Shown piece by piece: positions 1-60,591 of a DNA stretch of 64,000 bases. The stretch lies in assembly GCA_016782425.1 (NCBI GenBank), contig JADHYN010000005.1, forward strand, positions 6,502 to 70,501. The letters are read 5' to 3'. The position numbers and the translations under genes were made by a program. Source of the stretch: Candidatus Omnitrophota bacterium. Lineage in GTDB: Bacteria > Omnitrophota > Gorgyraeia > JABMRN01 > RBG-13-46-9. The notes below the pieces were generated by a model, which worked only from the letters and a program-made list of their open reading frames with translations, did no database searches and was not told where the DNA came from. Each line of letters begins with the position of its first letter. The stretch's first letter is position 1.

Positions 1-3000
1 AAAAGATGATCTTTTAGGCTTTAATACGCCTATACGGCAGTTTCCCGCTATAGTGAATGCCCTTGACTGCTACGGCCTTGGCCTCGGAACCGATGATTAC
101 CTTGCGTATGCTAAGGAACTGCTTGAGACACTGCCACCGGCTCTAAGACAGGAATATCTGTTCCATGAAGCGCTCTGTCATTATTTCCCTGAAAAAGCCG
201 GCCATCAGATCGCAAGACGCATCCAGATGATGTTATTTCCTGATAACTACAAAGATGTTACGCCACGGGTAGGGGACGAGAATCCAGAGTTAACCGGCCA
301 GCTTACGCTCGCCTTATATAAATTTATCGAATTCGGGCTGGATACAGCTACAGCTACGAAAAAGAAGCTAACCAAGGCGCCTTCTTATAAGTTCGGCTTA
401 GATGCAAAAGGCATGGGCAGCGAATACATAATATTAAGAAAGGATATGCTTAATATACATGCTGATTGGGCGCTAGATCAAACTGTGTTGGGACGCTTAA
501 GACTGGCCGAAACTATCGGCGAGAGAATCAAGATACTTCTGGAGGAAAGCGGATCAAGCTATGAAGAAATGGCTCAGCACACAGGAGTGAGGAAACTCCA
601 GTTAGAAAGGTGGATTGAAAAGCGGACAAGTGTTTATCCGCAATACATAAAAAAACTGGCTGCTTTTTTTGCCATAGATCCCTCTCTCATCATAGAGGGA
701 AAAACAACATGGCAAGCGCTCACTGACCAAACAAAAAATTGCGGCCAGAGAGTCGAGCTCTTGCGAATAGCCGCGGGAAAAGCTATCTACGATTTTAAGC
801 CAACGGGAATACCCGCTCCTGTCTTTTCGATGTGGAAAAACCGGCCCTATTATCCTGTCGAGCACCCGTATCTTAAGGCCTTCTGCGGCCATGTCGAAGT
901 CGGATGGAAAGATCCTGCAATGCTTTTATCCGGAAAACCGCTTTTGAATGCCCTTATTGACGCAGCAAATGATGCCGTGTTACACGCAAAAAGAATGAGG
1001 GATAGCGGTAAGTTGGAAGCCGCTTTAAAAGACAGGATTTTTATGGCACAGGCGCGAAAAGACTTATTACTTCTTGACGCAGAAGAAAATGGGAACACTG
1101 AAGGCGTTCACAAGTTGATTGCTGCCTTTAGATTGAAGCTTTTGAACGCCGACATAGGTAAAACAAAAGGCGCTGTTATTCAAGAAATTTCTGAAGAAAC
1201 GGGCATATCGATACAGCAGATCAGAAAACCTTTTAACGGAACAAATATTGGTAACGACAGCGTACGGCAGGCGATAAGTCAGTATTTTGATATTTCCGAA
1301 TCCCTTATCTTTGACGGGGAACCTCTTGAGTCCGATATAAATAAACTTGTCGGAATGAAATTTGTAAGGGTCCCTATAACACAAACCTCATATAGCAAAC
1401 GCATACAGTTCGTGCTGGCGTTTATAAATAAAAACTCCGAGTCACTACTTAAGCCCTCTCCGGAACTGGAAGAGGTGCTTGCGCGTCATGGCGTAAAAAT
1501 TGTTATAGCAAAACGTTCCGGGCGCAAGGGTACGACTGCAGCACTTGTAGATGCCTTCGTAGAGGAAAAGCCAAAACCCGAGGAACCTAAAGAAACACAC
1601 AAGCCTAAACCTTCAGCTAAAGAAGTTAGAGCTGCGGAAGATGTCTCGGATCTTCATCAAGCCCTGCTAAATGAAGTTAAGCGGCTAAGAAGAGAAGGCG
1701 GCCGGGCAATGACCCACAAGGATTATTTAGATGCACTATCATTATTTCATCGCGCTTTTGACATAGCTGAAGCAGCATTAGCGCAAGCCGAAAATAAAGG
1801 CTATGCTGCCTCTTTATCACGATTGATGGCAGCGCTTCAAAGTAGAATTGCTAGTGCAGAAAAACTCTGCTCTGCCGAAGATAGAAGAAGAGCTGATAAG
1901 GAAAGGGAAACAGCAAATCGAGAGTTCCGGCAAGGAATCGCGGACAAAGAAATAGCGCATCAGAATGAGGGCTGGGCTGCGACATTAAGCCTCCTGGATG
2001 AAGCAGCTCAAGAACGGAAACTAAAAGCACTAAAGGAGAAGGCAGCAAAAGAAGTGCAGCCTCAAAGAGTCAAATTACGCAATACTTCGCAAAGAATCAG
2101 AGAGGCCATGCGTTTGAGTTTGAAAAATGCTAGCAATAGGATTCATATTGTTGGACAAAGAATGAGAGAGTTCGGATCGTCTATAGAAGAAGTAAAAAGA
2201 CAAAGAGAGAGAGATGCCCTGGCAGGAAGAAATAAAGACACTCGACAAGAAGATGCGATTCTCCTGATAAACGCTGCGATAACCGCTTTAAAAAACCTTA
2301 TGGAAACTGAAAGGTTTGAGGGCATAAAGGATGCGGGGCTTTTGCCATCGGTTAGAAATGCATATTTCGAAGGTGCAAATTTCAAAGAAACATACGGCGA
2401 TGACGCGGAAATCGATTTGTTTTTTGAAGAACTATCCGAAACTATAGAGCTAGCCAATACGCGCAGGGAGGGATGGATAAGAAGAGAAGAAGAGCGCTCT
2501 CAAGCGCTTGCTTCAATCACTAAGAAACCTAGGGAATTAGCCAGAAGAATTGAGTCAGCGCGGAAAAAGCTCGCGTCAGGAACCGCTCTGAGTACCAGGG
2601 AAAGCCAAGCTTGCCTTGAAGCTTCATTTGCCGCTATGCGCGATTCGCTATCGCAAAAGATAGGTGCTGTTGACGGCAATCTTCCAAGGTCGCTTGAAGA
2701 TATGATGCAACACCTACAAGAAATACAGGAAGCATTACAAATCTTATTCCCTGAGGAAAAACAAAGGGGCGAAACATCGCCAAATACCGGCTCACCCGCC
2801 GGGCTTCTTGAATACCTGAGAGACAACACTGAGCTACTACGAGAAGCTTTAAATAAGAATGGGATAACTCTTAGAAAAGTAAATAAAACAAGGTTCAAAC
2901 CTAAAACAGATAAACAATATAAGGATAAAACAAAAAAATTAGAATTTCAGATCCTCATCGATCTCGGCATTTTCGAACCCATCAAGGGCGACCCTTATGA

Positions 3001-3754
3001 TTGTCGTTTTACCGAGATGATGAAAGGTAAGGATCTAAACTACACTGAAAGCCTTATTAACAGAATAATCGATATACGCTACAGAGTCGGGAAGCGGGGA
3101 GATAAGCCGTTATACAGATATGATTTTCGAAAAGAGGCACCTGCCGCACTTAAAACCGTTTATGAACTCGTAAAGATGGCTGCTCTGGAACATATATCCG
3201 TTACTTCAAAAGAGACAAAGACTTTGTGGCACATCATTGACGAGGATCTTCTTGCTTTTTCACAAAAGTCGCTCATCACTGAAATAAATAAAACTTTCAG
3301 AAATTCCAAAGCGCCTGAGCGGATAAGGATAGTCAGAGGTAACGAAATCGCCGGCACAATAGCAGAAATTAGCGGGAGAGATTCGAGTGCAGCTTTTGAT
3401 GTTGGATTGAGCAATGCGAACCTAATTAGCAAATTACCGGATGATGTTAAAATGCTTGTATTTAAGCGGAGCGGGGGAGACTTCGAACATCTGGAAGGTA
3501 TTATTGCCGCATTAAACGCGCTTCATCTCCCAAAAGAAAAGAAAATAGGCGCGCTCTTAAGGATCTACCGAATCCTGCATAACGGAAAAGAATACAAACT
3601 AAAAATCCCGGCACATGTGATGGCTGCGCTATTGGACGATTCCAAAGCGTTCGCGCAGCGCTTTATTTTTGATCTGCCAAGGACCGCTGTAACGAATTAC
3701 GATGAAAAGCGAAAGCTGAACGAGCGTCTTCTCAAAATCCTCCTCTCCGCCTAA
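1..3754 (+). CDS. Giant multidomain protein, N-terminus probably cut by the window edge
   Basis: The ORF track gives 53..3754 (1233 aa, GTG start). The same frame is open from nt 2 with no stop, so at least 1250 codons are visible. It has three XRE/Cro-like HTH modules: aa ~148-215 (EEMAQHTGVRKLQLERWIEKRTSVYPQYIKKLAAFFAIDPSLIIEG), a degenerate copy at ~232-294, and ~355-422 (ISEETGISIQQIRKPF...YFDISESLIFDG). A ~400-aa K/E/R/A-rich helical region follows, then modules shared with ORF 46603..52020. Confidence 0.8.
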   Translation, partial: KDDLLGFNTPIRQFPAIVNALDCYGLGLGTDDYLAYAKELLETLPPALRQEYLFHEALCHYFPEKAGHQIARRIQMMLFPDNYKDVTPRVGDENPELTGQLTLALYKFIEFGLDTATATKKKLTKAPSYKFGLDAKGMGSEYIILRKDMLNIHADWALDQTVLGRLRLAETIGERIKILLEESGSSYEEMAQHTGVRKLQLERWIEKRTSVYPQYIKKLAAFFAIDPSLIIEGKTTWQALTDQTKNCGQRVELLRIAAGKAIYDFKPTGIPAPVFSMWKNRPYYPVEHPYLKAFCGHVEVGWKDPAMLLSGKPLLNALIDAANDAVLHAKRMRDSGKLEAALKDRIFMAQARKDLLLLDAEENGNTEGVHKLIAAFRLKLLNADIGKTKGAVIQEISEETGISIQQIRKPFNGTNIGNDSVRQAISQYFDISESLIFDGEPLESDINKLVGMKFVRVPITQTSYSKRIQFVLAFINKNSESLLKPSPELEEVLARHGVKIVIAKRSGRKGTTAALVDAFVEEKPKPEEPKETHKPKPSAKEVRAAEDVSDLHQALLNEVKRLRREGGRAMTHKDYLDALSLFHRAFDIAEAALAQAENKGYAASLSRLMAALQSRIASAEKLCSAEDRRRADKERETANREFRQGIADKEIAHQNEGWAATLSLLDEAAQERKLKALKEKAAKEVQPQRVKLRNTSQRIREAMRLSLKNASNRIHIVGQRMREFGSSIEEVKRQRERDALAGRNKDTRQEDAILLINAAITALKNLMETERFEGIKDAGLLPSVRNAYFEGANFKETYGDDAEIDLFFEELSETIELANTRREGWIRREEERSQALASITKKPRELARRIESARKKLASGTALSTRESQACLEASFAAMRDSLSQKIGAVDGNLPRSLEDMMQHLQEIQEALQILFPEEKQRGETSPNTGSPAGLLEYLRDNTELLREALNKNGITLRKVNKTRFKPKTDKQYKDKTKKLEFQILIDLGIFEPIKGDPYDCRFTEMMKGKDLNYTESLINRIIDIRYRVGKRGDKPLYRYDFRKEAPAALKTVYELVKMAALEHISVTSKETKTLWHIIDEDLLAFSQKSLITEINKTFRNSKAPERIRIVRGNEIAGTIAEISGRDSSAAFDVGLSNANLISKLPDDVKMLVFKRSGGDFEHLEGIIAALNALHLPKEKKIGALLRIYRILHNGKEYKLKIPAHVMAALLDDSKAFAQRFIFDLPRTAVTNYDEKRKLNERLLKILLSA
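2942..3127 (+). other. Conserved module A (copy in the left giant ORF)
   Basis: aa 964-1025 EFQILIDLGIFEPIKGDPYDCRFTEMMKGKDLNYTESLINRIIDIRYRVGKRGDKPLYRYDF aligns without gaps to aa 729-790 of ORF 46603..52020. 36 of 62 positions are identical by hand count. Confidence 0.8.
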
Positions 3755-6977: not shown

Positions 6978-7666
6978 GAATGTACGACCGCGTTTCGCAT
7001 AAAGAGATCGTCGATACCTTTTTCAAAAGAACGTCTCTGGCACCGTCCAAAAAAACGCCCGTGACGGGCCGAAAAAAAAACCGTCTCCCGTTGTTATTTA
7101 CGGCGTTTTTACTTCTTGCATTCTTCTCATGTTTGGTTATAATAATACTAAATAGGGGGGGATATCTAAAGAGCGGTTTAGCCGGGTACGATGCCGCGCA
7201 AAGGGTAGAGAACCTCGTTGCCGACGGCGTTGCCAATCGCGCCATTATTGAGGAAGTCTGGTTCGAGGGAGACGCGGCAACTGAAAGTTCATTCTTAAAA
7301 AGCTCGATACGGCTTGTTAATCAGGGCCCCGAGGGAAGGGCCGCGCTTACGATCAGCCTTAAAGAGCGCCTGAACCTGAAGAATAAATCGATACTCATAA
7401 CAGCGAGAAGCGAAGGGGCCCTTGCAGGATTCAAGCTTCTTTTGCGGGATAAAAAGGGCGATTTTTTTACGGCGAAAGAAGTGGGCCTGGCGAGCCGCTG
7501 GAGCCGCGAACATATTTTTATTCAGGTAAAAAAGAACCGTAATTTTAATTTTGACGGGGTTTCCGCGCTTAAGATAGAATTCGGTTCAAAAACCGCTGGT
7601 AATCGACAGGGTGCAGTTATCTACATAAAAGACATCTTAATACGGGAAGGGGACGTAAGCAAATGA
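6968..7666 (+). CDS. Hypothetical single-pass membrane protein with a beta-rich C-terminal domain
   Basis: A basic N-terminus is followed by a TM helix ([22 protein letters not shown]) and a ~150-aa domain. It overlaps guaA at its start and ends in an ATGA overlap with the next gene. Confidence 0.6.
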
Positions 7667-8754
7667 AGATCATAGCATTGGCCAACCAGAAAGGCGGTTG
7701 TGGAAAAACGACTACTGCAATAAATCTAGCCGCGGGCCTGGCAGAACGCGGCCGGCGCGTACTCTTGATTGATAGCGACCCGCAGGCGCACGCCTCGATC
7801 GGTTTGGGCGCGTTAAAGACCGAGGTCTCCGAAACCATCTACGCCTTATTTACGGAAGAAATCCAAAATTCAAAAAAGATAAACGAGCTTAAAGTAAACA
7901 TCGACCGAAACTTCGACCTCGTGCCATCTCACATAATCCTTAGCACCATAGAACATGAGCTGAAAGAAAGAGAAGACGGACTTCTAATATTGAATAAAGC
8001 AATCAGCCATTCCGAATTGAACTACGACTACGTAATAATCGACTGCCCTCCTAATCTCGGGTTCCTGACCTTCAACGCGCTCAGGGCCGCAACCGACATA
8101 ATAATACCCGTCGAAACAAGCGTGTTCTCTGTTATCGGCGTAGGGAAATTGATAAGCATGGTAGAGCTAATAAAAATAAAGCTCCACCACGCCCCGCACA
8201 TTAAGGGCCTCGTTACGATGCACGACGAATTTTCTGATTTCTCCGTTAGGATGCTTCAAAAAATAAAATATGTTTTTAAGGACCGGCTGCTTAAAATTGT
8301 CGTCTCCTTTGACACGACACTCCGCGAAGCCCAGGAAAAATCTATCCATATTTTTAAAATGAACTCGCAGTCCCGCGCTGCGCACGACTACCTCGCGCTT
8401 GCCGATGAGCTGCTAGCCATGGATAAGGAAGAATCGGCCGAGAATATTTATCAGGAAATGCGCAAGATAATGCACGGCGTATACGGCAACGTGTACTCAA
8501 AGGAAAAAACCTTTAACTTTTACGCGCCGGTCGCAAAAGAGGTTTTCGTCGTAGGGAATTTTAACGACTGGAAAATAGACGATTTTAGCAAGTTGGATCG
8601 GCAGGAAAGCGGCCATTGGGAAAAATCGCTTTACCTTCTGCCCGGAAAATACCGCTATAAGTTCGTCGTTGACGGGCTCTGGTTCTGGGATCCCAAAAAC
8701 TCGGAAAAGGAACCTAATCCATACGGCGATTTCGATTCGGTCTTTCAGGTATAG
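7663..8754 (+). CDS. ParA/Soj-type ATPase fused to a C-terminal CBM48 (AMPK-beta-like glycogen-binding) domain
   Basis: Deviant Walker [23 protein letters not shown] and LLIDSDPQ. The C-terminal ~80 aa read [21 protein letters not shown]...[20 protein letters not shown]...GDFDSVFQV, matching the AMPK-beta GBD pattern (GSFNNW...LPEGEHQYKFFVDGQW..DP). Confidence 0.85.
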
Positions 8755-13326: not shown

Positions 13327-13700
13327 CAGGTGTCCTTAAGGTGGCGTCTAGAATAAAGAGGGTTGCCTGCCTAGCGGCTCGCCTCGCGGCGAAGCCGCGG
13401 GCAAGGCCGCTGGCTTGGGCAGATGGAGGCGGTGTGGCCTTGAAGACAGAAAATTTTGTGTGCGAACAGCGTAATTGAGTAAACCCAGCACTTATTTTGA
13501 TAAAATAAGTGCTGGGGAGAAATCTTAAATACACCAATTGCCGTGAGCCACAAAATTCGTCTGAAACCGATTCTACTCTGAATTTCTACTATAGTCGGTT
13601 CCCCGAGCCGAAGGCGAAGGGAAAGGTCGCGCCGCATCCATCCTGCCTCTATGGCAATGCCCGTAACCCTCTAATAACCAAGCTGCCGGAAGGATGCCTG
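13327..13700 (-). repeat. Copy 1 of a ~0.4-kb GC-rich hairpin-dense element (structured ncRNA or MITE-like repeat)
   Basis: 13654-13693 is the reverse complement of 16520-16559, with 34 of 40 positions identical and the last 20 all identical. The ends are complementary: CAGGTGTCCTTAAGG at 13327-13341 against CCGGAAGGATGCCTG at 13686-13700. A second tier pairs AGAGGGTT (13358-13365) with AACCCTCT (13665-13672). There is an internal perfect 15-bp hairpin at 13484-13516. Confidence 0.6.
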
Positions 13701-13765
13701 CTTGCCGCCAGCTTCTACTTTATACCTTGTGTTTTCTTTTTACTTATATTATTATATTACCCATT

Positions 13766-15310
13766 ATGAAAGCAGGTATTCTTCTGGCACTACTACAGGC
13801 AGCAACCGAATTCTTGCCCGTATCATCTTCGGGGCACCTCGCGCTGGCAGCAAATATTATCTCCGAGCCAAATCTATTCTTTTTCACAGCGCTACATATG
13901 GCATCCCTGATAGCCGTTATCATATTTACCCGGAAGGAAATAGCAGAGCTTTTATCATTCAAAAAAGACTCCCGAACAATATGGCTCTACCTTGCTATCG
14001 CCACTCTGCCGGCTGCGGCCTTCGGATTTTTCTTCAGAAAAACAGTTGAATCGGCGTTCAGCTCTCTTACTGCTATCGGCATAGCGTTCATCATAACCGG
14101 GGCAATTCTTTTTCTCACAAAATTCGCAAGACGCCGCGCCGTGATTACCTCAAAAAGCGCATCTCTTATAGGTATCTCACAGGCCTTCGCATTGTTCCCG
14201 GGCATATCACGAAGTGGCATGACCATATCAGCCGGCCTTTTTCTCGGGATGGAACCTGGAAAAGCCGTGCGTTTTTCATTTCTTTTATATATCCCTCTTT
14301 CTTTAGGCGCTTTTATCCTGGAAGCGGAGAAGGGAGCCTATTTTAACGGAACTCTTCTGGTTTCTTTTCTGGTATGTCTTTTTGCAAGTTTATTTTTTCT
14401 TAAAGCTCTCTTGGCACTCGTAAAAAGGGGTCGACTCTGGATGTTTTCATTTTACTGCGTTCTCCTGGGGTGCGTTACGCTTTTTATGGCCCATTCCGAA
14501 AATATGGTGCCTATTAAAAAATCCGGCACTGCCTACGCCCAGACAGAAAAAAAACTAGAAAGGCAAGACCTGCTTATTGAAGTAAGCGACCGGACGTGGG
14601 AAATATTTGAGGACGTGCAAAGATTCGAGCCCATAAAAATGACGTTCGACCCCGGCCGCGGCAAAGGTAAAATATCGGAAAATATTTCCGCGCAATTTAT
14701 CTGCTCTCCGAAAACGTTTGATATCTATATAGTTCTTTACAGCCCTCACATTACGGAAGAGACGCTTCTTCACGAGGCGTTGCATGCCAAAAATATAGTG
14801 CAAGGCTTTCCCTTTCTTCTCGGCCGCGCTTTTCCGGAAAAGAACACGATGGCAAACCTTGAAAACCAGATAGAGCACATGAGGATATTTTCCGAAATGA
14901 GGGATATGGGTTTTGATCCCGAAGCCTATGCGCAAAAAAGATGGAAAAGCGGCATTGAAACAATCGGCACCGATGCGCTCAACAATATTCCTTCCGATAC
15001 AGAGCCTTACGTAATCCGGGCAATAGTGGCGACTTATGCCCTGGGGGGCCTCGTCGCCGGCATCAGCTCTGAAGAAATCAAAAAAAATATACCGCTGCAC
15101 TTCGCGGATTATGTCGATACCGGGAGCGAGATTTACGAGACATTAAAAAAATACGATCTTCGGAACAGGGCAGAAAATATGGAAGCGCGCATCAAGATAG
15201 GCTCACTTTTGCGCCTTGAGGATCGGGACGCTCTTCTTTGCGAGATGGACTTTAAAAACCGTAAACTGTCCTGCTACAACATAGAAACAGGGACGCCGCT
15301 CGGAGATTAA
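13766..15310 (+). CDS. uppP: Undecaprenyl-diphosphate phosphatase (UppP/BacA) fused to a ~265-aa C-terminal HEXXH domain
   Basis: UppP signature ATEFLPVSSSGHL and a multi-TM body up to about aa 270 of the track ORF, then a soluble region with LLHEALHAK (HEXXH at nt 14771-14785). The start was moved to ATG 13766 (MKAGILLALL...) because the upstream extension overlaps the repeat element. Confidence 0.8.
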   Translation: MKAGILLALLQAATEFLPVSSSGHLALAANIISEPNLFFFTALHMASLIAVIIFTRKEIAELLSFKKDSRTIWLYLAIATLPAAAFGFFFRKTVESAFSSLTAIGIAFIITGAILFLTKFARRRAVITSKSASLIGISQAFALFPGISRSGMTISAGLFLGMEPGKAVRFSFLLYIPLSLGAFILEAEKGAYFNGTLLVSFLVCLFASLFFLKALLALVKRGRLWMFSFYCVLLGCVTLFMAHSENMVPIKKSGTAYAQTEKKLERQDLLIEVSDRTWEIFEDVQRFEPIKMTFDPGRGKGKISENISAQFICSPKTFDIYIVLYSPHITEETLLHEALHAKNIVQGFPFLLGRAFPEKNTMANLENQIEHMRIFSEMRDMGFDPEAYAQKRWKSGIETIGTDALNNIPSDTEPYVIRAIVATYALGGLVAGISSEEIKKNIPLHFADYVDTGSEIYETLKKYDLRNRAENMEARIKIGSLLRLEDRDALLCEMDFKNRKLSCYNIETGTPLGD

Positions 15311-15312: not shown

Positions 15313-16062
15313 GTGGATAAGATAAGCGTAATTCAGGGGCTGATCGACGCTAAAAAGGCCCGAGTTTACCTTGAGATCGGCGTTGCCAGCGGCGATTGCT
15401 TCCTTAAGATCACCGCAGCAAATAAAATCGCCGTAGACCCGGAATTTACCATACCCTTCCGCCGCAAGGTAAAGCGCCATATGAAAAGATTGCGTTCGGT
15501 ATTCAACGCCAAGTCCCGGATGAATGAATATTATTACAGGATGCGAAGCGACAACTTTTTTGCGGGACAGAACTTGCCATTGCTCAAAGAAGGGCTCGAT
15601 GTAGTATTCGTTGATGGCCTGCACACTCACGAGCAATCTCTCTCTGACGTTAAAAATAGCCTTACCCGCCTGAGCCCGGGAGGCGTTATTGTTGTGCACG
15701 ATTGCAACCCGACCACGAGCGCCGCGGCATTTCCTGCTGCATCCTATGAGGAAGCCAGAGAAAGCAAACCGGAAGGCTGGCGAGGTGAATGGAGCGGAAA
15801 TGTCTGGAAAACGATACCCTACTTGAGGTCAACAAGAAGAGACCTTGATATTTTCGTCCTTGATTGCGACTGCGGACTTGGAATAATCACGAAAAGGGAA
15901 AATGCTCCCGCGCTTAACTGCAAAGCAGAAGCTATAAAGCTGATGGGCTATAAGGAGCTTGAAAATGAAAGGGAGTATCTTTTAAATCTGAAACCTGAAA
16001 ATTTTTTCCACAAGTTTCTAGGGGAATTAAAGAAAAGGAGTTCCGGTGAAAAGGCTAAGTAA
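15313..16062 (+). CDS. Class I SAM-dependent methyltransferase (Methyltransf_24-like)
   Basis: VYLEIGVASGDC...VVFVDGLHTHEQSLSDV...GGVIVVHD. It is paralogous to the N-terminal domain of 22058..23107. Confidence 0.7.
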   Translation: MDKISVIQGLIDAKKARVYLEIGVASGDCFLKITAANKIAVDPEFTIPFRRKVKRHMKRLRSVFNAKSRMNEYYYRMRSDNFFAGQNLPLLKEGLDVVFVDGLHTHEQSLSDVKNSLTRLSPGGVIVVHDCNPTTSAAAFPAASYEEARESKPEGWRGEWSGNVWKTIPYLRSTRRDLDIFVLDCDCGLGIITKRENAPALNCKAEAIKLMGYKELENEREYLLNLKPENFFHKFLGELKKRSSGEKAK

Positions 16063-21407: not shown

Positions 21408-22040
21408 ATGTCCCCTGTATCAAAAAAAATAAGCTGGGAGATCATAAAAAAAGCAATGCTCCCGGCTGTTTTTATCTTGGCGGTTGGCGGATTTTACTGG
21501 TATTACACCCTACGCATTGTCCCGAAAATTTCTCCCGAGATCTATGAGGCTTCAAAAAAATACATCATCACACTTTTTATTCTTTGCGGCACGTTCGCCG
21601 TTCACCGCGTATCCGGTGCGGTTTTTGGCTGGTATAAGCAGAATATCGCTTCAAAAACCGAGACCAAGCTCGACGACCAGTTGGTGCCTCTCTTACGCAG
21701 AACGTTTAACACGCTTCTCTGGATAGTGGCGCTTCTGGTAATCCTGCCTGTTTATAAAATAAACATAAGCGCTCTTGTTACGGCACTCGGCGTAGGCTCG
21801 CTCGCCATCGCGCTCGCAGCACAGGATACAATCGCGAATATCATAGCCGGGTTCCTAATAATGATAGATTCGCCGTTCACGGTGGGGGACAGCATAAAGC
21901 TGCCGTCCGGCGAAATGGTTAAGGTTCTTGATATCGGGGTGAGGCGGTCGAAATTCCTGGCTGAAGACAAAGCGATTGTCTTCGTGCCTAACGTTGATTT
22001 AAGCAAAAGCAAAATCGTAAACTATAGTTACCACCAATAA
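21408..22040 (+). CDS. MscS-family mechanosensitive channel, short form
   Basis: ALGVGSLAIALAAQDTIANIIAGFLIMIDSPFTVGDSIKL is a typical MscS TM3/beta-domain junction. At 210 aa it appears to lack the C-terminal alpha/beta domain. Confidence 0.75.
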   Translation: MSPVSKKISWEIIKKAMLPAVFILAVGGFYWYYTLRIVPKISPEIYEASKKYIITLFILCGTFAVHRVSGAVFGWYKQNIASKTETKLDDQLVPLLRRTFNTLLWIVALLVILPVYKINISALVTALGVGSLAIALAAQDTIANIIAGFLIMIDSPFTVGDSIKLPSGEMVKVLDIGVRRSKFLAEDKAIVFVPNVDLSKSKIVNYSYHQ

Positions 22041-22072
22041 AACCTGCCCTACTGTTTTTATTGGTGGTAACT
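22026..22072. terminator. Perfect 17-bp inverted repeat shared by two convergent gene ends (bidirectional terminator candidate)
   Basis: AGTTACCACCAATAAAA (22026-22042), a 13-nt loop, then TTTTATTGGTGGTAACT (22056-22072). Both stop codons lie inside the arms. Confidence 0.6.
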
Positions 22073-23107
22073 GCACTCCACGTTTCCGTTTTCGTCCGTT
22101 GAATAATCTCCCAACGCGCAACTAGGCATGCTTCTTAAGTAGGAAGGAACTGTTACTATCTCTATTTCCGCTGCGCTCAAATCCTCCGTAGAAACCGAGG
22201 GATCCAGCGCAACAGCCGTGCCAAGCGCCCCTTCGAGTTGTCTTATATTTGCGGCGCAAGCGCCTTCTCTGCCTTTATCCCGGGCTGTTTGATACCCGGG
22301 TATAGCAATAGCCCCTAGAATTCCTATAATGGCAACGACTATCATTATTTCAACAAGCGAAAAGCCCTTATCCCGCCGGGGAAATCTCTTTAAAATGCTC
22401 TCTTTCCGCTCATAAAACCTGAGCTTGAGCTTAAGAAACCATTCTAAAAAAATAAAAAATGTTCCTATGTTTTTTTTCTTTATGAGCACGCCCAGGCCCT
22501 CTCCTCTGTTATAGCAAAAGAAATAGTACCTGTGCCCGTAATTTTTTAGAAAATCCTCTATTGCCGTGAGCACGCCGTTTCTTGGGCCACCCTCATGCGT
22601 AGCATTATAGTGGCCGGCATTCATGCCGCCCGACTCCGAAAGCCCGCTCTTTCCGCGCATGATTCCTTTTTTTGCGTACGGATGTCTGTATTCTGCGGGA
22701 ATATCCAGAGGCGTATAATACATGTCGCGCCGCGCGTAGGGCCAGCGAACGTCATGCAAAAATATTGCGCCGCCTTTTTTTAGCAGTTTTTTTTCCTCTA
22801 TCAGGCGCAGTTCGTTATACACTGTAAACCAGTTATGGTCTCCGTCTATCAGTATAGAATCAAAATTGCTTTCAAGAGCGGGCAGAACTCCAAGGCTCTT
22901 TCCTTTATGTGCCGTGACATTTGAAAGTTTGCCGAATTCCTGGACAAGATCCTTGTCGAGGCAAGGGTCAATAACGGTAATTCGGGTATTATTAATTCCC
23001 GCAAGAAGCGCGGTATTCTCTCCCAGCGAAGCCCCTATTTCACATATACCCGGGAACCGGTTTTTTTGGATAAAAGGCTTTATGGCCTTATGAAAAAAGT
23101 ATTTCAT
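22058..23107 (-). CDS. SAM-methyltransferase domain fused in frame to a type IV prepilin/pseudopilin module
   Basis: aa 1-210 are Methyltransf_24-like (CEIGASLGENT...ILIDGDHNW...GGAIFLHD). aa 246-349 read DKG|FSLVEIMIVVAIIGILGAIAIPGY, the canonical prepilin cleavage/methylation motif with Glu at +5, followed by a small Cys-containing globular part. Confidence 0.75.
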   Translation of the reverse strand: MKYFFHKAIKPFIQKNRFPGICEIGASLGENTALLAGINNTRITVIDPCLDKDLVQEFGKLSNVTAHKGKSLGVLPALESNFDSILIDGDHNWFTVYNELRLIEEKKLLKKGGAIFLHDVRWPYARRDMYYTPLDIPAEYRHPYAKKGIMRGKSGLSESGGMNAGHYNATHEGGPRNGVLTAIEDFLKNYGHRYYFFCYNRGEGLGVLIKKKNIGTFFIFLEWFLKLKLRFYERKESILKRFPRRDKGFSLVEIMIVVAIIGILGAIAIPGYQTARDKGREGACAANIRQLEGALGTAVALDPSVSTEDLSAAEIEIVTVPSYLRSMPSCALGDYSTDENGNVECSYHQ

Positions 23108-23195
23108 GATTCTTTGCGTATAGTATAATCGAGAGAGCCTTTTTATTCAAGATTTATCTTGAGAGCAAAAATTTTTGAATATATAATAGTAAGCG

Positions 23196-46602: not shown

Positions 46603-49600
46603 ATGTTAAAGAATAGGTATAGATATAGCATATGGATTAAATCTATAGCGATGGTACTGGTGTGCCTATTTTTCTTCAATAGCATTTCATGGTCCCTGCC
46701 CGAATCTACCCTTGCCGCATACACAAATCTCACGGAAAATGAATTTAAGGAAATGTTCAAGGCTAAAGAGTTTCTTTTGGCAAAAGAGGGTGTGCATGAA
46801 TACATAAGAACACAAGTAGATGAAGAAAAGGGAATATGTAAAAAAGACTGGAAAAAGCGCAGGACAGAGGTCGTAAACCTTGATGATTTAAGAATAAGAG
46901 GCCGCATTGGATATGATGTAAGAGGATTACACTCGGCAGTATTCATAAGAGTTGCGGGCTTCTTAGCAAGCACCGGCCAGCCTGCTTATGTGGAGTTAAA
47001 CGGCGAGGAAGAAGAATTTGAAGGCATGCTTACAGTATACATCGACAGCATGCTTACTAACACTCCGGACAAAGCCATACAGAAACACGAAATAGACGAG
47101 ATTCTTCAATGGGAAAACCTAAGGATTAATATTCTTCATATATCAACAAGAGAAAAGATGTACGAATGGATCGTGAAGAATATTGATAAATTAGACCTTG
47201 ATGACGATATTAGCGGCAGGTTACTCGAAGAATCAGAATACGCAGAATGTAAATCATCCCGCCAAATAGCAAAAAAGATCCATAAAAATTCCTATCCTTT
47301 GGATTTTCTTTATGATAACGAATTTGTGGATAGCTTAGATTTTGATTATTCGTATATCGGTAAAATGTTGTCGCTTTACGGTACCGATGAAAGAAGCGGG
47401 CATTTAAATATTGCGGCGAAAAAGACGAGCAAGGGACAAGGCACAGGGGCAAAGGAGCCGGTTTCTGTTTCACCTCTAGGTGTTCGGGCTTTGCTGACAT
47501 CGTTATCCCGACGAAGCGTTTTAAGGTTGCTTTTCATAGCCATGTCCAACAGGTTCGTGGCTTTTTCGGCTTATGGCAAAGAAAGGGCTTCGGCTGTGGT
47601 CCGGAAAAACTGGGGCGTAGATTATATGGAAACGCAAGTTCCCGTTGTCAACCTTGTCCACTTGGTGGATCAGGCAAAGAAAAATAAATTATTACACGAA
47701 TCACTAGTCTTTATGGAGGTCCCTTTTGACCTTAATAAGTTGCAAATGAAGATTGTAGCGAGTGGCAAGCCATTAGAACTCGACAAGGGGCTCATTTATC
47801 ATGGAACGGCAAATTTAGATGAAGCGCTATTGCATGGCTCTCTTAAAGGAGAATGTCTTTTTACGCGGGTGGCCCATGAATGGGCAATAGGCCCGTTTGC
47901 TTTTGCAAAAGAGTCAAAGAAAAAGAAAGACACGCCTGCGATACTCATGGTTCATACGGACGATTTCAATCGCTTAGTGACAGACGGAAAAGCTAAATTC
48001 ACTGCTCAACTTCAGGGTAGGGAAAAATGGATAGAGCCTTATCCAAAAATAGATGATCTTTCTTTGGACATTGTAAGAGAGACATGGGTTAGCGAGGAAG
48101 ATTATGCCCGGTATCAGAGGATCGCAAATGCGAAACCCGATTCAGGGTTGTCCGAAATGGACAAAGCCTTACTCCCTGCCCGGGCTAAATTAAGAGTGAT
48201 GCTTGAAAACGGAAAATTAATAAAAATCCCCGGGTTACGCAAGGAATACTATGTTAATAAATCCGACGACCTTAGACTTCTTTCTTATGCAGACGTGCAT
48301 CGCGCTGTTGGGCTTTACATGAAAAGCCGCAATCTATTCCGGCACTATATGCCATACTTTAAGATTGTAGGAGAGGAGAGCCCGTTTAAGAAGCCTCGCA
48401 CGAGGATTCTTTCAACCAAGATAGCAAAAATTGCGAATGTATCAATATACACGATTCTTGGCACAGCCGTTTTTGCAGCAATAGCGATACCTTTAAGGAG
48501 CCGCATAAAGGATATTCAAAATGCCAGAAGAGCAGCTTTTAAAAAAAGAAATCGAAAAAGGACTCAGCCTGCGCAAAAGAAAGGAAAGAGGCGTAGAAGG
48601 GGTAAGGCCGGCCGGGGCAGGACAGTGAAAAAAGGAACTTCCAAAGGCTGCGCAGCAGAGCTTCTTAACGTGCTGAAAGACAAAAGAAATTACCGGCTCT
48701 TGAAAAAAGCGCTAAGCAACAAAGGCGTTACCGTAGACGATGCAGAAGGCTTGCGCAAACCCCATGTCAGAAAAACCGTGCAAAAAGAGTTTAAAATATT
48801 AGTGGCCCTTGGTATTTTTATCCCAATCAAGGGAAACCCTTACCATTGCCGCATGTCAAAAACATTAAAAGGTCCGAACCTACGATATACGAGGGATCTT
48901 ATTGATGCCATAAATGACATAGAATACCTCGTAGGCATAAGGGGCAGGTGGCCTCTGTGGCGATATGACATTCCCGAAGAAAAAATACCCACTGTAAAAG
49001 AACTTGTTAAAAACACTATAAGGAATATCGTGGCAAGCTCAAGGAAAATAATCGAAGATACAACTAAGAAAAAAAACGTAGGCGATATTGTGCGGCTTGG
49101 TAGAGCCAGATATCGAATAGTGCGTTCGCGCCATAACACTTTTCATACCAAAAAAGCCCGGAGGCTGGATACAAACGAATATGTATGGCTTAAGTTTCAC
49201 CTTGCTGGAGCCCAAATGGGCAAAATGGAAGCAAGGAGAATTAAAAAACTCCAAGAACGCCCCATCGACCATTTTGTTAATGGTCAAACCTTCGAGGACT
49301 CAAAAGGAAATATAGTAAACATATTTGAACATATTGAAGGTGAGACGCTGCATGAAGTTATCCAGGGCATTAAAGTTGGCCATCGCGAATACTTCAAAGA
49401 TCACTTTCCGGATCTCGCACTGAAGTTATTAGATCTGGCAAGGGCACTGCAAGAATTGCACGAAAGACTTAAAATAACCCATAGCGACATACATCTCAAG
49501 AACATCATAATCCAAGACGGAACGAGAAAACCATTCTTAATTGATTACGACTTCCCGATAATGAGCGAGAGATATAGCGATATTGAAGAATTAGGCTTAT

Positions 49601-52020
49601 CATTATTAGATTTAGCATTAAAAAGTACATGCGCTGAGGGTAGTCACACCCTTTATGATTTTCCTAAATTGGAGTTTACCGGGGGAGAATTATGGGATGA
49701 AGAAGTCATCCTCAATGCGAGAAAAATCTACAGTTACATACCGGAAGACATTAATAATATTTTGCTACGCTTTGCCGATGACTGTGAGAATCGCTATAAA
49801 ACAGCTTCTGAATTTGCGGATGACCTGGAAAAGGCGCTTCGCAATATGACGGCCCTCCCGGTGAAAAAGCATGGCAAAAAAACATTGCGCATTATCGCAA
49901 AGGTTGAAGAGGTAAAAAAAGTTCTCGAGATATATTCCAATTGGAAATTTCGTGATTATGAAAAAGGGGAGTGGTATCATGCAAATGTTTTAAACGAAGA
50001 GGGGCAAGCGCTCTTAGAAGAACTTGAAGCAGCCTACCAAGCCCTGCAAAAACGAAAACCCACTGCAAAAGAAATAAAAGCAATTAAAGGCCTTATCAAC
50101 AGGGTGCCTTCCGTAAAAAACCCTCACCCGGAGTTATTCGTTGACATATTACCCGGGGTTCCTAAAAAAATACGGAAACGTATTTTTAAAACAATTTGCG
50201 ATATGGGTACTACCGGGAAGTGTTTTAACGTGTTGGTGACTCGCGGGTGTTACAACCAATGCGCATTTTGTCAATTTGAAGCTCCTCTGCAAATAAGCCA
50301 TATGCCCTTTCCTCTCTTCATTAAAATACTGGATGAGTACGTAAAATACAACGATGTCGAACCTATACTTCACCGGGATAGCGATCCATTTCATTATCGA
50401 GATCGCGCCATAGGCGCTAATCTTGCGGATTTATACAAGGCCATTAAAAAAAGAGGGCTAGAATATTCAGCTTTAACAGGTGGCTGGAATAAAACGAATA
50501 AAATAGCACAAACGGCCGCGGAGAGACTGGCGCGCAGCGACATAGAAGTTGAAGTAAGTTTTAATCTCTTTAAGAAATCTTTGATGGAGGCCGTAAAACA
50601 AAATGATAAAGATAAAATAAAAGCTGCTTACAAAAAATGCAAAAAGAGATATAAAAATATTCTAGAAACACTTCGGCCTGTTATACGTATTGTCCGTCTT
50701 GAATTTAGCGGAAGAACAAAAGACAGGAAGATAAACAAGCTAACTAGAAAAATGTATGACGAACTAAAGGAAGAACTTGAGCTTCCGAATGCGTTTGAAG
50801 ACAATGAATGCCCTATAAGTTGGCTTCCGGAAAAGAAAGGGAGTAGCATTGATTCTTCAATCGATGAAGTTCTGTCTGTTGGATATGCTATTTTACCGCC
50901 ATATGACGGAAATATTGAGATTGGCTATGCTGGCGATGGAGTAATAGAACTAAAAAAATTGGTTGAATCAGGCACGCTAAATAGAGACGCTTTATTATTT
51001 TTGATGAACACAATACTGCTTTCGCATAAAAAAGGCCATCGCGATATTGAAATAAAATTAGCGTCACTGCCAAAAAGCATGCGCGCGTATTTGCATAAAA
51101 AAGGCATCAAAAAGAAAAAAATAAGGCTGTTGGGTTTAAATAAATCTGCACGGCTATTTTTTAAAGAGTATTATAGATTGTTTTACTCTGAATTTACGGA
51201 GTATCTGGAGTCAAAAGAAGAAATTACAGCCCGCGACATAGACGAAATAGTGCAGAGATTTGGGTATGTCCCTGTCCTAAATGGCATGAAATACAAAAGA
51301 AAAAAGCTTATTAAGAAATTATGGATCAGGAACCCCAATCAATGCTTTAAATCTGAAATAGTTCTTTACGAAGCAGCAAAAGTTCAAAGAGATATTGATT
51401 CTGTGCCTAGTCGAGAAAGCAATAAAGAGACAACTAATGCCTTAAAAATAATGACTGATTTCATCCTACCCGGACTTAAAAAAGGTGAAGTGTATGAAAT
51501 ACGTTACAATAAACTTAAGTTTGATGAGTATCAAAGAAGCGCAAACTTAGACGCAAAGAAAAACTCACCCCGAGCCCTGCTTCAGACATATATAGACCTC
51601 TTGCGTATGGGGGCGCCTAAAGGAAGTATTAAGATAATCCCATGCTATAGGGATGACAGGCCGCTTATTTCTGTGTCGCGCTATGCTTCAAGGGATTCCG
51701 TAAAACCGGTTGGCGTGGGTAATGTTGATATGGCCGGAGACATAAGAGGGCAGCCACTAAGGATAGTAGGCATGCTTAACATGGCCTTTGCAGCGTCACA
51801 TATCCCGAATGACGTATTCCCGGATGAAATACACAAATACACAAGCTTACTGAACTTTATTAAAAATCAATATAAAGACATAACTGGCAAAATATTAAAA
51901 GCGGATAATCTATTGGAAGCTATACGCTGGATAACGCTACCCGCAGCAAAGCCCATACCCGTACAAAACCTCGCAGACTACTACCGCTTGACCATAGAGC
52001 AACTTCGCCAAGCCGCATAA
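46603..52020 (+). CDS. Giant (1805 aa) two-TM protein with a protein-kinase-like domain, a radical-SAM core and modules shared with the left-edge giant ORF
   Basis: TM1 at aa ~10-30 and TM2 at aa 611-631, followed by a K/R-rich stretch (aa 641-679). Module A at aa 729-790. Kinase-like region at aa ~826-1085 (HSDIHLKN, DYDF). CYNQCAFC at aa 1216-1223. C-terminal module at aa ~1610-1805. No SD sequence is present. An extended -10 (TGCTATAGT, 46587-46595) lies 7 nt before the ATG. Confidence 0.85.
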   Translation: MLKNRYRYSIWIKSIAMVLVCLFFFNSISWSLPESTLAAYTNLTENEFKEMFKAKEFLLAKEGVHEYIRTQVDEEKGICKKDWKKRRTEVVNLDDLRIRGRIGYDVRGLHSAVFIRVAGFLASTGQPAYVELNGEEEEFEGMLTVYIDSMLTNTPDKAIQKHEIDEILQWENLRINILHISTREKMYEWIVKNIDKLDLDDDISGRLLEESEYAECKSSRQIAKKIHKNSYPLDFLYDNEFVDSLDFDYSYIGKMLSLYGTDERSGHLNIAAKKTSKGQGTGAKEPVSVSPLGVRALLTSLSRRSVLRLLFIAMSNRFVAFSAYGKERASAVVRKNWGVDYMETQVPVVNLVHLVDQAKKNKLLHESLVFMEVPFDLNKLQMKIVASGKPLELDKGLIYHGTANLDEALLHGSLKGECLFTRVAHEWAIGPFAFAKESKKKKDTPAILMVHTDDFNRLVTDGKAKFTAQLQGREKWIEPYPKIDDLSLDIVRETWVSEEDYARYQRIANAKPDSGLSEMDKALLPARAKLRVMLENGKLIKIPGLRKEYYVNKSDDLRLLSYADVHRAVGLYMKSRNLFRHYMPYFKIVGEESPFKKPRTRILSTKIAKIANVSIYTILGTAVFAAIAIPLRSRIKDIQNARRAAFKKRNRKRTQPAQKKGKRRRRGKAGRGRTVKKGTSKGCAAELLNVLKDKRNYRLLKKALSNKGVTVDDAEGLRKPHVRKTVQKEFKILVALGIFIPIKGNPYHCRMSKTLKGPNLRYTRDLIDAINDIEYLVGIRGRWPLWRYDIPEEKIPTVKELVKNTIRNIVASSRKIIEDTTKKKNVGDIVRLGRARYRIVRSRHNTFHTKKARRLDTNEYVWLKFHLAGAQMGKMEARRIKKLQERPIDHFVNGQTFEDSKGNIVNIFEHIEGETLHEVIQGIKVGHREYFKDHFPDLALKLLDLARALQELHERLKITHSDIHLKNIIIQDGTRKPFLIDYDFPIMSERYSDIEELGLSLLDLALKSTCAEGSHTLYDFPKLEFTGGELWDEEVILNARKIYSYIPEDINNILLRFADDCENRYKTASEFADDLEKALRNMTALPVKKHGKKTLRIIAKVEEVKKVLEIYSNWKFRDYEKGEWYHANVLNEEGQALLEELEAAYQALQKRKPTAKEIKAIKGLINRVPSVKNPHPELFVDILPGVPKKIRKRIFKTICDMGTTGKCFNVLVTRGCYNQCAFCQFEAPLQISHMPFPLFIKILDEYVKYNDVEPILHRDSDPFHYRDRAIGANLADLYKAIKKRGLEYSALTGGWNKTNKIAQTAAERLARSDIEVEVSFNLFKKSLMEAVKQNDKDKIKAAYKKCKKRYKNILETLRPVIRIVRLEFSGRTKDRKINKLTRKMYDELKEELELPNAFEDNECPISWLPEKKGSSIDSSIDEVLSVGYAILPPYDGNIEIGYAGDGVIELKKLVESGTLNRDALLFLMNTILLSHKKGHRDIEIKLASLPKSMRAYLHKKGIKKKKIRLLGLNKSARLFFKEYYRLFYSEFTEYLESKEEITARDIDEIVQRFGYVPVLNGMKYKRKKLIKKLWIRNPNQCFKSEIVLYEAAKVQRDIDSVPSRESNKETTNALKIMTDFILPGLKKGEVYEIRYNKLKFDEYQRSANLDAKKNSPRALLQTYIDLLRMGAPKGSIKIIPCYRDDRPLISVSRYASRDSVKPVGVGNVDMAGDIRGQPLRIVGMLNMAFAASHIPNDVFPDEIHKYTSLLNFIKNQYKDITGKILKADNLLEAIRWITLPAAKPIPVQNLADYYRLTIEQLRQAA
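48787..48972 (+). other. Conserved module A (copy in the 1805-aa ORF)
   Basis: EFKILVALGIFIPIKGNPYHCRMSKTLKGPNLRYTRDLIDAINDIEYLVGIRGRWPLWRYDI. See 2942..3127. Confidence 0.8.
49078..49857 (+). other. Protein-kinase-like domain
   Basis: Candidate beta3 Lys in VWLKF (K864), hinge FEHIEGETL, catalytic loop HSDIHLKN (nt 49480-49503), DYDF in the DFG position, and a C-lobe ending RYKTASEFADDLEKAL. Confidence 0.6.
50215..50802 (+). other. Radical-SAM core
   Basis: NVLVTRGCYNQCAFCQFE carries CxxxCxxC (nt 50248-50271) preceded by the usual beta-strand. The downstream pattern is TIM-barrel-like. Confidence 0.6.
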
Positions 52021-58220: not shown

Positions 58221-58452
58221 ATATTTCTCCTTTTGTTTTAACAGATTTTTATTCTTCGCTTTGCTGCTCTAATTCTTAATGCATAAATTATACCCTCAAA
58301 AAAAACTACTTCAAGGAAAATTGTGAACTTTCCTTGCATTCCCCGCACCTACCCCGTAAAATACCCCTTTGAACCCCCGCCTCGGGGTGAAAAAGCAGTT
58401 TCTTTGGCACTATTGCATTGCAGGGTTAAGATATGATATACTACGATTTATA

Positions 58453-58989
58453 ATGAAATATTCTACAGTTTTTCATTTAATGTCTGCCGTATCAGAAAAA
58501 AATGCCGTCTCTTGTATTTTAATAGGTGGCTTTGCTATTAACTACTACAAGGTAACGCGCCAAACGCTAGATGTGGATTTTCTCATTACAAAAGAAGACT
58601 TTAAAAAAATACTTCCCTCATTAGAAAGGGAAGGCTACAAAAAAGATTATTCCCAAGAAGTGGTTACCAGGCTCCAAGCTAATTCTTTGTATCTGATGGA
58701 TCTTGATTTCATGTTTGTTGATAAAGACACTCTGGATAAAATTATCTCCGAGGGCAAGAAAATAACCATAGCTAAGCAAGAGTTTATCGTGCCATCCATA
58801 GAGCATCTGATCGCATTAAAATTACATTCTATAAAGAACAACCCCGATATAAGAAAAAATAAGGACTTACCGGATATTGTTAACTTGATAAAGGTTAATA
58901 AAGTAAATGTTAAAAATGAGGAATTTAAAAAAATGTGCTTGAAATACGGTAACGCAGAATTATACAACGAGATCTTAAAAGAGGCATAG
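58453..58989 (+). CDS. Nucleotidyltransferase-fold protein (toxin-antitoxin-associated type)
   Basis: CILIGGFAINYY...LDVDFLI... is a minimal-NTase-like pattern. The start was trimmed from the track's TTG to ATG 58453, downstream of TTGCAT...TATACT. Confidence 0.45.
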   Translation: MKYSTVFHLMSAVSEKNAVSCILIGGFAINYYKVTRQTLDVDFLITKEDFKKILPSLEREGYKKDYSQEVVTRLQANSLYLMDLDFMFVDKDTLDKIISEGKKITIAKQEFIVPSIEHLIALKLHSIKNNPDIRKNKDLPDIVNLIKVNKVNVKNEEFKKMCLKYGNAELYNEILKEA

Positions 58990-59160
58990 ATGAAAGACAT
59001 TGATCTACCTATTATAAAAAAACAACTGCCACGGGAGAGACATTTACCCATGGATGATTACCTAAGATTTATCTATTTAAATTTAAAGTACACTGCAGAC
59101 ATAACGGCAAGTAGAAAGCTCAAAAGACTCTTGTCAGTAAATAAGGCATTCTCGCTTTAA
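58990..59160 (+). CDS. 56-aa partner ORF abutting the previous stop (TAGATG)
   Basis: My own translation is MKDIDLPIIKKQLPRERHLPMDDYLRFIYLNLKYTADITASRKLKRLLSVNKAFSL. Confidence 0.35.
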   Translation: MKDIDLPIIKKQLPRERHLPMDDYLRFIYLNLKYTADITASRKLKRLLSVNKAFSL

Positions 59161-59223
59161 CCCTATAACATAGGGACACATCCGAATATATGAACCCCCG
59201 CCACAGCATAAGTTCGTGAATAC

Positions 59224-59252
59224 TTGACAGAGGCGGTGTAATATGTTACACT
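59224..59252 (+). promoter_or_regulatory. Promoter (TTGACA, 17 nt, TACACT)
   Basis: TTGACA at 59224-59229 and TACACT at 59247-59252. Confidence 0.5.
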
Positions 59253-59275
59253 TATCGGTGTAAAAGGTGGTTCAA

Positions 59276-59824: not shown

Positions 59825-60246
59825 AATTTGATGATAGATATTTTAAGCGCTTTGACTTCAGCAAAGAGCAGATTGAAAAGAATCTGCAAAATGCCTTTAA
59901 AGACTTCGATATTGCGGTGAAGGATAATATCCTGGAGGTAAAATTCAATTACGCCTATACTTCTTTAATTAAAGCCGGAATAACACTGCTCAGTTTTTAC
60001 AAATTGAAAATAAAGAGTGTTCCCGGACACCACATAAAAATAATAGACAAGATGTCGGATATTTTAAAAAATGATACTATTAATGAAATCGGAAATGCAA
60101 TGCGGTCAAAAAGAAATTTAGATTTTTATTCAGGTGGCATAGAAGTCACAGAGAAAGAGTGCCATGAATATATTGCTTTTGTCAAAAAAGCGCTGAAGGA
60201 TATTCAAAAACATATTAAAGGTAATCCCGAACCATCTTCGTACTAA
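59821..60246 (+). CDS. HEPN-domain protein (toxin-like partner of the MNT)
   Basis: 4-nt overlap with the MNT gene. All-helical, ~140 aa, with a ...MRSKRNLDFY... Rx4-6H-like region. Confidence 0.6.
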   Translation: MKFDDRYFKRFDFSKEQIEKNLQNAFKDFDIAVKDNILEVKFNYAYTSLIKAGITLLSFYKLKIKSVPGHHIKIIDKMSDILKNDTINEIGNAMRSKRNLDFYSGGIEVTEKECHEYIAFVKKALKDIQKHIKGNPEPSSY

Positions 60247-60274
60247 ACGCCCCTTATCGTCCCTTATCGCCCTT

Positions 60275-60568: not shown

Positions 60569-60591
60569 TGTTTTAGCAGGAAAGGCTAATA

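Follow-up and report, generated by a model that had tools for sequence, protein, structure and literature searches.

In modular pilins, an extra module is grafted C-terminally onto the pilin. PilB and PilC of Streptococcus sanguinis, for example, combine a pilin module with a functional domain (PMC8179133, PMC9934059), which is carried on the exported pilin and displayed on the filament. In type IVb and Tad prepilins, whose leaders reach up to ~26-30 amino acids, a hydrophilic cytoplasmic leader ends in Gly before the hydrophobic alpha1N segment (PMC4471445). Prepilins are inserted with the N-terminus inside (N-in) via the signal recognition particle and Sec, and are cut on the cytoplasmic side after the Gly at position -1 (PMC4471445). 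The only long prepilin extension that we found described is that of mitochondrial GspG in Naegleria and its relatives, where ~160 amino acids precede the conserved pseudopilin processing site and all detected peptides came from the part after it (PMC8134430). Here we describe a gene in which a complete methyltransferase takes the place of the prepilin leader. It lies in a 64,000-nucleotide stretch of the genome of an uncultured Candidatus Omnitrophota bacterium (contig JADHYN010000005.1 of assembly GCA_016782425.1, positions 6,502 to 70,501), which is referred to below as the window and to which all coordinates apply, unless another locus is named.

The gene differs from each of these systems in a particular way. 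Compared with the type IVb and Tad prepilins, its 'leader' is 8-10 times longer and is a folded, conserved enzyme, followed by a pilin of the type IVa/pseudopilin kind. The extension of mitochondrial GspG is an organelle-targeting sequence and not an enzyme, and it belongs to a eukaryotic system in which there is no GspO homologue. Unlike the module of the modular pilins, the additional domain lies N-terminal to the signal, so that it would be cytoplasmic and would be removed on processing.

Architecture of the fusion protein

The open reading frame (ORF) at 22058..23107 on the minus strand begins with ATG and runs through 349 codons to TAA. The ORF list and the sequence agree that it is uninterrupted, as an earlier note on this DNA had stated. 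Its product is identical to protein P0001, recorded at NCBI as a class I S-adenosylmethionine (SAM)-dependent methyltransferase from a Candidatus Omnitrophica metagenome-assembled genome. As the public annotation names the methyltransferase only, the pilin is invisible to annotation-based surveys. Two Pfam domains scored above their curated cutoffs, namely Methyltransf_24 (PF13578; residues 23-120, E 9e-11, 43 bits versus a gathering cutoff of 26.3) and N_methyl (PF07963; residues 244-269, E 1e-8). The NCBIfam model TIGR02532 (IV_pilin_GFxxxE) matched residues 247-269 with 30.9 bits versus a cutoff of 16.3, and NCBIfam also gave partial matches to the N-termini of PilA, GspG and ComGC.

The class III (prepilin) signal, DKG|FSLVE, stands in frame directly after the enzyme and is followed by a pilin of 101 residues. 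Its core (22298..22372, minus strand; PF07963 and TIGR02532) comprises DKG at residues 246-248, the predicted cut between Gly248 and Phe249, Glu253, and alpha1N at residues 249-270. The context of the cleavage site reads ...YERKESILKRFPRRDKG|FSLVEIMIVVAIIGILGAIAIPGY..., with Gly248 at -1, Phe249 at +1 and Glu253 at +5. The prepilin signal that had been proposed at residues 246-270 is thus recovered by two family models with all three of its diagnostic residues in place, and the in-frame fusion of a methyltransferase to a prepilin signal and pilin holds at the DNA level. In place of a short leader of 6 to ~30 residues after the initiator Met, 248 residues precede the site.

The methyltransferase domain, a Methyltransf_24 class I SAM-methyltransferase, occupies residues 1-230 (22418..23107, minus strand). 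It has ~2,960 homologues, the best of which are 47-68% identical and cover residues 1 to ~245. Among the homologues listed, all but P0001 and P0002 (the counterpart from a second lineage, see below) are free-standing proteins, mostly of 230-290 residues (range 210-316), and PF07963 is absent from every one listed except P0002. Free-standing Methyltransf_24 proteins of ~250 residues, such as P0003, which also has the same convergent MscS neighbour, share the collinearity over residues 1-245 and the invariant residues, and they end 4-25 residues past the point where the pilin starts here. Since the family is collinear up to residue ~245, the enzyme runs right up to the pilin signal. The methyltransferase is therefore complete, as had been claimed, but extends well beyond the residues 1-210 that had been assigned to it.

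The enzyme half has retained every one of the 29 columns that are invariant in an alignment of 42 family members. AlphaFold2 (AF2) modelled residues 1-230 with predicted local distance difference test (pLDDT) values of 85-98 as means over 10-residue blocks, except for 71 at residues 121-130. Foldseek returned cation-dependent O-methyltransferase, CCoAOMT and TrmR folds at 14-18% identity (E 1e-8), and none of the solved structures is close in sequence to the enzyme half. No Peptidase_A24 or related domain was found in the fusion protein with Pfam, NCBIfam or Foldseek; the enzyme is a soluble class I methyltransferase and not a bifunctional prepilin peptidase of the PilD/GspO type, in which an A24 peptidase domain is joined to a Cys-rich N-methyltransferase domain. 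The gene at 15313..16062 had been called a paralogue of the enzyme half. The DGDH/DGLH and GG.I..HD motifs of the two do align, but the relationship within their common Pfam family is no more than distant (BLASTP 33% identity over 48 residues, E 0.002).

The rest of the pilin (residues 271-349; 22061..22297, minus strand) forms, in the AF2 model, the remainder of alpha1 and a small head with Cys284, Cys330, Cys345 and His348. Modelled from a 65-sequence alignment, the pilin half reached a pLDDT of 91.7, with a 51-residue alpha1 helix (positions 14-64) and a small beta head; its best matches in the PDB are PilJ and PilE, both weak (E 0.13-0.36). The pilin half keeps all invariant columns of two family alignments, in which the conserved cysteines number three (Cys284, Cys330 and Cys345) and not two as previously counted. 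Both lineages retain the Gly at -1, Phe1, Glu5, an Arg, the three Cys, a Tyr and the His.

The relatives of the pilin half form a large family of free-standing proteins of ~100-135 amino acids from Omnitrophota, Verrucomicrobiota, Planctomycetia and their relatives. Those whose N-terminus was read all start with Met and have a leader of 5-12 residues. The nearest of them, P0121 (110 amino acids, 56% identity), is the product of an orphan gene and has the leader MKVNAKG. Such orphan pilins of Omnitrophota and the Planctomycetes-Verrucomicrobia-Chlamydiae group (e.g. P0121 and an Omnitrophica pilin in L023) have the same size, are 48-56% identical over the mature pilin, and share with the pilin half the signal G|F(S/T)LVEIMIVVA as well as the motifs ACxxN, YL(K/R)xxPxC and C...H. 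While the orphan pilins possess their own Met and basic leader, a 245-residue enzyme here replaces the Met and most of the leader.

A further HMMER match, P0332 (604 amino acids), contains three tandem copies of the pilin head with the pattern ARxxxxxxxC..N...YLRS.P.C...G.Y...C.(V/I)H, and the N-terminal part of its third copy keeps a hydrophobic, alpha1N-like stretch from which the G/F/E motif is missing. Proteins other than pilins thus also make use of the small head domain.

Authenticity and distribution

The gene was found in seven independently assembled contigs from different runs (SPAdes nodes at 5-9x coverage and Logan assemblies), which are identical at every nucleotide, the 3' hairpin included. 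A second lineage, represented by P0002 at locus L001 from a Joint Genome Institute (JGI) sample, is 85% identical at the amino acid level and shows ~13% nucleotide divergence in the gene; frame and junction are as in the window, and the length is equal except at the last two codons. The merging of two genes by an indel was one of the three readings originally offered; as an error of sequencing or assembly, it would require that an indel in a homopolymer run joined a methyltransferase gene to a downstream pilin gene. Runs of A8 and T6-7 do lie 100-130 nt upstream of the junction, and a single added T would let an out-of-frame ATG open a leader of 17 residues. Against this, the seven separate assemblies agree fully, the diverged L001 keeps the frame, and the sister locus treated below shows a clean insertion of exactly 330 nt, or 110 codons. 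The combination of out-of-frame ATG and homopolymer slip was rejected, because this ATG is ACG in L001. According to our analysis, the probability that the fusion is an error is practically negligible.

In order to find the same architecture elsewhere, an exhaustive HMMER scan was performed over 1.84 billion cluster representatives with residues 171-349 (enzyme end plus pilin) as the query. P0001 matched over the whole query with 399 bits, and every other match covered the pilin part only, with at most 109 bits. Among these representatives, the enzyme-pilin architecture is accordingly confined to one cluster (50% identity), that of P0001. Internal pilin motifs in eight other matches (P0307, P0308, P0340, P0342, P0343, P0356, P0390 and P0394) were dismissed as precedents; these appear to be tandem pilins or over-extended ORFs, with a Met at most ~25 residues from the site where checked. 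The HMMER scan replaced a word-indexed search with a chimeric query of 179 amino acids, which recovered neither P0001 nor P0002 and the result of which was not used. In a scan of GTDB genomes, no full-length fusion was present among the matches listed. A first DNA pattern for the junction gave no match in the JGI metagenome contigs; this is a weak negative, since the pattern fits the L001 junction and the collection is thus apparently without that contig. The second junction pattern returned only unrelated pilins with the leader MNINKEITEPSRDKG, adjoining a large ATPase ORF.

Origin of the gene

A sister locus, L002, encodes P0003, the closest of the free-standing methyltransferases listed (249 amino acids, 68% identity), and contains no pilin. 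The P0003 gene converges with an MscS gene whose identity to the MscS of the window is 76%, and the methyltransferase stop overlaps the MscS end. Owing to this same convergent neighbour, the locus is orthologous on its 3' side. On the 5' side, synteny is not conserved, as the upstream neighbour in L002 is unrelated to the arginase-family gene of the window.

With positions 22043-22372 removed, the window aligns gap-free to L002 across the junction. The alignment delimits an insertion of 330 nt (22043..22372, minus strand) that consists of DKG, the 101-residue mature pilin, TAA and 15 nt, and whose ends share with the target only a GG (2-nt) microhomology. The tail of P0003 reads ...YERKESVRKRLPPR-FYPL*, where the window has ...YERKESILKRFPRR-DKG|FSLVE, and the two tails are homologous without gaps. 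The gap-free alignment after removal of the 330 nt indicates that a 5'-truncated pilin cassette was inserted cleanly. Judged by this alignment, ILKRFPRR in the 'leader' stems from the basic tail of the enzyme itself (residues 231-245, ...YERKESILKRFPRR; 22373..22417, minus strand), which now serves as the proximal part of the 'leader', and does not derive from a pilin leader.

The methyltransferase gene has thus captured, in frame and after its codon 245, a fragment of a small orphan type IV pilin gene that lacked the start codon and the greater part of the leader. The fragment kept its stop codon and 15 nt of 3' flank, and its insertion displaced the last four codons and the stop of the enzyme. 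Comparison of orthologous loci, which had been suggested as a check, yielded no arrangement in which a short-leader pilin has a gene of its own at this position; the fusion recurs in one relative, and the next has no pilin. The birth of the gene is unusually clean, in that a promoterless and startless fragment was rescued by in-frame 3' capture in a gene of housekeeping type, a sister lineage preserves the ancestral state, and the insertion of 330 nt is defined to the nucleotide. A move of the pilin from upstream of Dus, the site of P0121 in the related contig L005, was also considered; the Dus gene of the window has nothing pilin-like upstream, and this origin was discarded as speculation.

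Translation initiation

The nearest in-frame ATG, GTG or TTG upstream of Gly248 in the window is the GTG at codon 207, which is 41 codons away, in line with the earlier observation that none lies within ~20 codons of the motif. GTG207 together with an upstream GAGGAG was rejected as a start. It is specific to the window, with GTT and a degraded Shine-Dalgarno (SD) sequence in L001, and the stretch around it encodes the conserved NRGEGLGV motif of the enzyme. Given that GTG207 is GTT and the out-of-frame ATG is ACG, the 80 codons before the site contain no canonical in-frame start in L001. In the window, the out-of-frame ATG opens an ORF of only 7 codons, as had also been read before. This leaves the rare ATT at codon 238 (22394..22396, minus strand; conserved in L001), correctly singled out as the sole near candidate, which would give a leader of 11 residues.

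A separate pilin could thus be made from an internal start at ATT238, with the leader M-LKRFPRRDKG, in which case the long ORF would be a same-frame overlap of two genes. The codon and the surrounding 26 nt are identical in both lineages, and a leader of this kind would look like genuine ones, for instance MKLFRKVRGEKG and MKIFRQLSKRG. Bacteria, however, very rarely start translation at ATT. SD pairing before ATT238 amounts to a dG of only -3.5 kcal/mol, the 45th percentile of the in-gene background, versus a median of -5.25 kcal/mol at 32 gene starts of the window. A good SD (dG <= -4 kcal/mol), AAGGAG-like and located ~9-12 nt upstream, was found in more than half of the window genes checked; as ~40% of them have a weak SD or none (dG > -4 kcal/mol), its lack before ATT238 is not decisive. 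A consensus scan detected no promoter-like site upstream of the pilin junction that could serve as an internal promoter, and it placed a sigma-70-like promoter, TTGAAT-17-TATACT, at 23122..23150 (minus strand), 14 nt before the ATG of the fusion. The stretch ILKRFPRR is inherited from the methyltransferase tail, and ribosomes coming from the upstream ATG would read through, as no stop codon intervenes.

An internal pilin start is therefore poorly supported by the sequence, and we consider it improbable that the pilin is translated separately. Of the non-canonical start that the earlier note had offered as its second reading, the conservation of ATT238 speaks in favour, while the lack of an SD and the homology of the 'leader' to the methyltransferase tail speak against it. 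Among the three readings (enzyme-pilin fusion, non-canonical pilin start and merging indel), a real, lineage-restricted gene fusion fits these sequence data best.

Selection on the two halves

Synonymous divergence (dS) and the ratio of nonsynonymous to synonymous divergence (dN/dS) were calculated throughout between the window and L001, that is, between two lineages. The enzyme (residues 1-248) has a dS of 0.50 and a dN/dS of 0.14, alpha1N a dS of 0.40 and a dN/dS of 0.30 with conservative hydrophobic changes throughout, and the pilin head a dS of 0.14 and a dN/dS of 0.70. In the ~100 codons of the pilin part, ~35 substitutions have introduced no stop and no frameshift in either lineage, and the 19 amino acid differences all miss the 20 family-conserved columns (hypergeometric P = 0.008). 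With the low dN/dS and the retained invariant residues of the enzyme and the confident model of the pilin, both halves look functional.

These data bear on the possibility that the pilin part is a recent neutral passenger, functionless and slowly decaying, whose insertion was tolerated as the enzyme still works. Such a passenger would match the occurrence of the architecture in a single 50%-identity cluster among the 1.84 billion representatives, the dN/dS of 0.7 in the head, which is not different from 1, and the lack of a type IV pilus (T4P) context around the gene. However, the frame has stayed open in both lineages despite the ~35 substitutions, these substitutions spare every conserved column, and a deletion bias would probably have eroded 330 useless nucleotides over a dS of 0.2-0.5. 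We therefore regard a functionless pilin part as quite unlikely.

The synonymous divergence is uneven along the gene, from 0.14 in the pilin head to ~0.54 in the enzyme core (22061-22363 versus 22364-23107). In addition, the first 30 codons show few third-position differences, and when the window is aligned with L001, the intergenic region upstream of the gene is almost the same in both. This pattern suggests mosaic recombination between the two lineages, or a constraint at the RNA level.

Processing and function

We posit that the gene is transcribed from the methyltransferase promoter and that translation from the methyltransferase ATG yields one polypeptide of 349 amino acids. The hydrophobic alpha1N, with the positive charges of KRFPRRDK just before it, would act as an internal signal-anchor in N-in orientation. 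With such an anchor the folded enzyme would stay in the cytoplasm and need no translocation, and the pilin head of 80 amino acids would be exported. As prepilin peptidase cuts on the cytoplasmic face, cleavage is topologically possible. A cut after Gly248 would release an enzyme of 248 amino acids, compared with 249 in the free-standing relative, and a normal mature pilin beginning with Phe1. The enzyme would thus serve as a 248-residue leader, and the pair would represent a two-protein polyprotein. We give an even chance to this reading, the most likely one, in which prepilin peptidase could cut a mature pilin from one N-in/C-out precursor and leave an almost native enzyme. That the peptidase indeed acts here as a polyprotein processor, releasing with one cut at an internal class III signal equal amounts of free methyltransferase and of a pilin competent for assembly, seems plausible, though it falls somewhat short of an even chance. 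As a much less likely extension, the methyltransferase might modify its own pilin in cis before release, an idea that we consider highly improbable.

Several observations weigh against the cleavable precursor. Described prepilin leaders measure 6-26 or 15-30 residues (PMC4471445), and the folded enzyme domain lies just 7-17 residues from the scissile bond. No gene for a prepilin peptidase or any other component of a T4P or type II secretion system was found in the 64-kb window plus ~18 kb of flank; type IVa pilus genes are common in all classes of Omnitrophota (PMC10066038). The dN/dS of ~0.7 in the pilin head is indistinguishable from neutrality (P = 0.58). Moreover, dS is lower in the pilin half than in the enzyme (0.21 versus 0.50, P = 0.006), which a single old fusion does not explain; later recombination between the lineages is one possible source of this difference. 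The power of all these comparisons is low, as they involve two lineages only.

Part of the same evidence would also suit a single uncleaved protein, in which alpha1N simply holds the methyltransferase at the inner membrane, on its cytoplasmic side, and the periplasmic head is a passenger or has acquired a new role. The fusion itself is real and conserved, purifying selection acts on alpha1N (dN/dS 0.30) with the head relaxed (0.70), the window and flank contain no peptidase gene, and the folded domain is close to the cleavage site. Nevertheless, Gly at -1, Phe1 and Glu5 are kept in both lineages although a plain anchor needs none of them, the invariant head residues (Arg, three Cys, Tyr and His) are kept as well, and ~2,900 homologues of the enzyme function with no transmembrane segment to anchor them. 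A permanent tether is thus unlikely in our view.

If the precursor is cleaved as we posit, it would represent the first natural bacterial enzyme that serves as a prepilin leader, and the length and fold of the leader would be essentially unconstrained. The gene is a natural construct for asking whether the N-terminal position and the leader of 6-30 residues, by which class III signal peptides are defined, are a mechanistic requirement or an evolutionary habit. Cleavage would mean that prepilin peptidases tolerate, and could release, whole folded proteins, which bears on models of substrate recognition. Programs for pilin prediction, which scan N-termini only, would be affected as well, and such cleavage might find use in engineering as a membrane-coupled protease site for the release of cytoplasmic cargo.

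Additional features of the window

Between the convergent fusion and MscS genes lies a perfect 16-bp inverted repeat with a 13-nt loop (GTTACCACCAATAAAA / TTTTATTGGTGGTAAC; 22027..22071). Its arms span 22027-22042 and 22056-22071, and extended, imperfect arms span 22006-22042 and 22056-22092. The RNA fold has a free energy of -30.8 kcal/mol (z -6.4). As the stop codons of both genes lie in the arms, both proteins end in ...SYHQ*. The sister MscS ends in ...SYKG*, so that the MscS of the window has apparently acquired a new C-terminus that mirrors the pilin's 3' end. The palindrome was considered as an integron attC-like site or a repeated element and rejected as either, given that the core motifs do not fit and that the window holds no other copies. 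At the same place, L001 (~1120-1193) has a 36-nt perfect palindrome of different sequence (...SYHSA*) that incorporates the loop of the window. This palindrome reaches the contig end and could be an artefact of fold-back assembly; a genuine palindrome would mean concerted evolution of the two arms.

The distant Methyltransf_24 gene at 15313-16062 (plus strand) starts 2 nt after an ORF of 538 amino acids (13694-15310, plus strand), in which residues 29-261 form a BacA/UppP domain and the ~270 C-terminal residues are without a Pfam match. At 7663-8754 (plus strand), a ParA/MinD-type ATPase (AAA_31, CbiA) is combined with a C-terminal glycogen-binding module (CBM_48 / AMPK1_CBM), which is an unusual pairing. 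The region 58369-62086 and the right flank (L097 7039-18394) contain a toxin-antitoxin/abortive-infection cluster with AbiEii, nucleotidyltransferase pairs, Gp49/helix-turn-helix (HTH), ParE and Fic. Very long ORFs are located at 46603-52020 (plus strand; 1805 amino acids), at 53-3754 (plus strand; at least 1233 amino acids) and in the left flank (L100 3333-9854; 2173 amino acids). They show almost no Pfam signal, with sub-threshold radical-SAM, kinase and HTH matches only, and their size fits the giant proteins reported for Omnitrophota.

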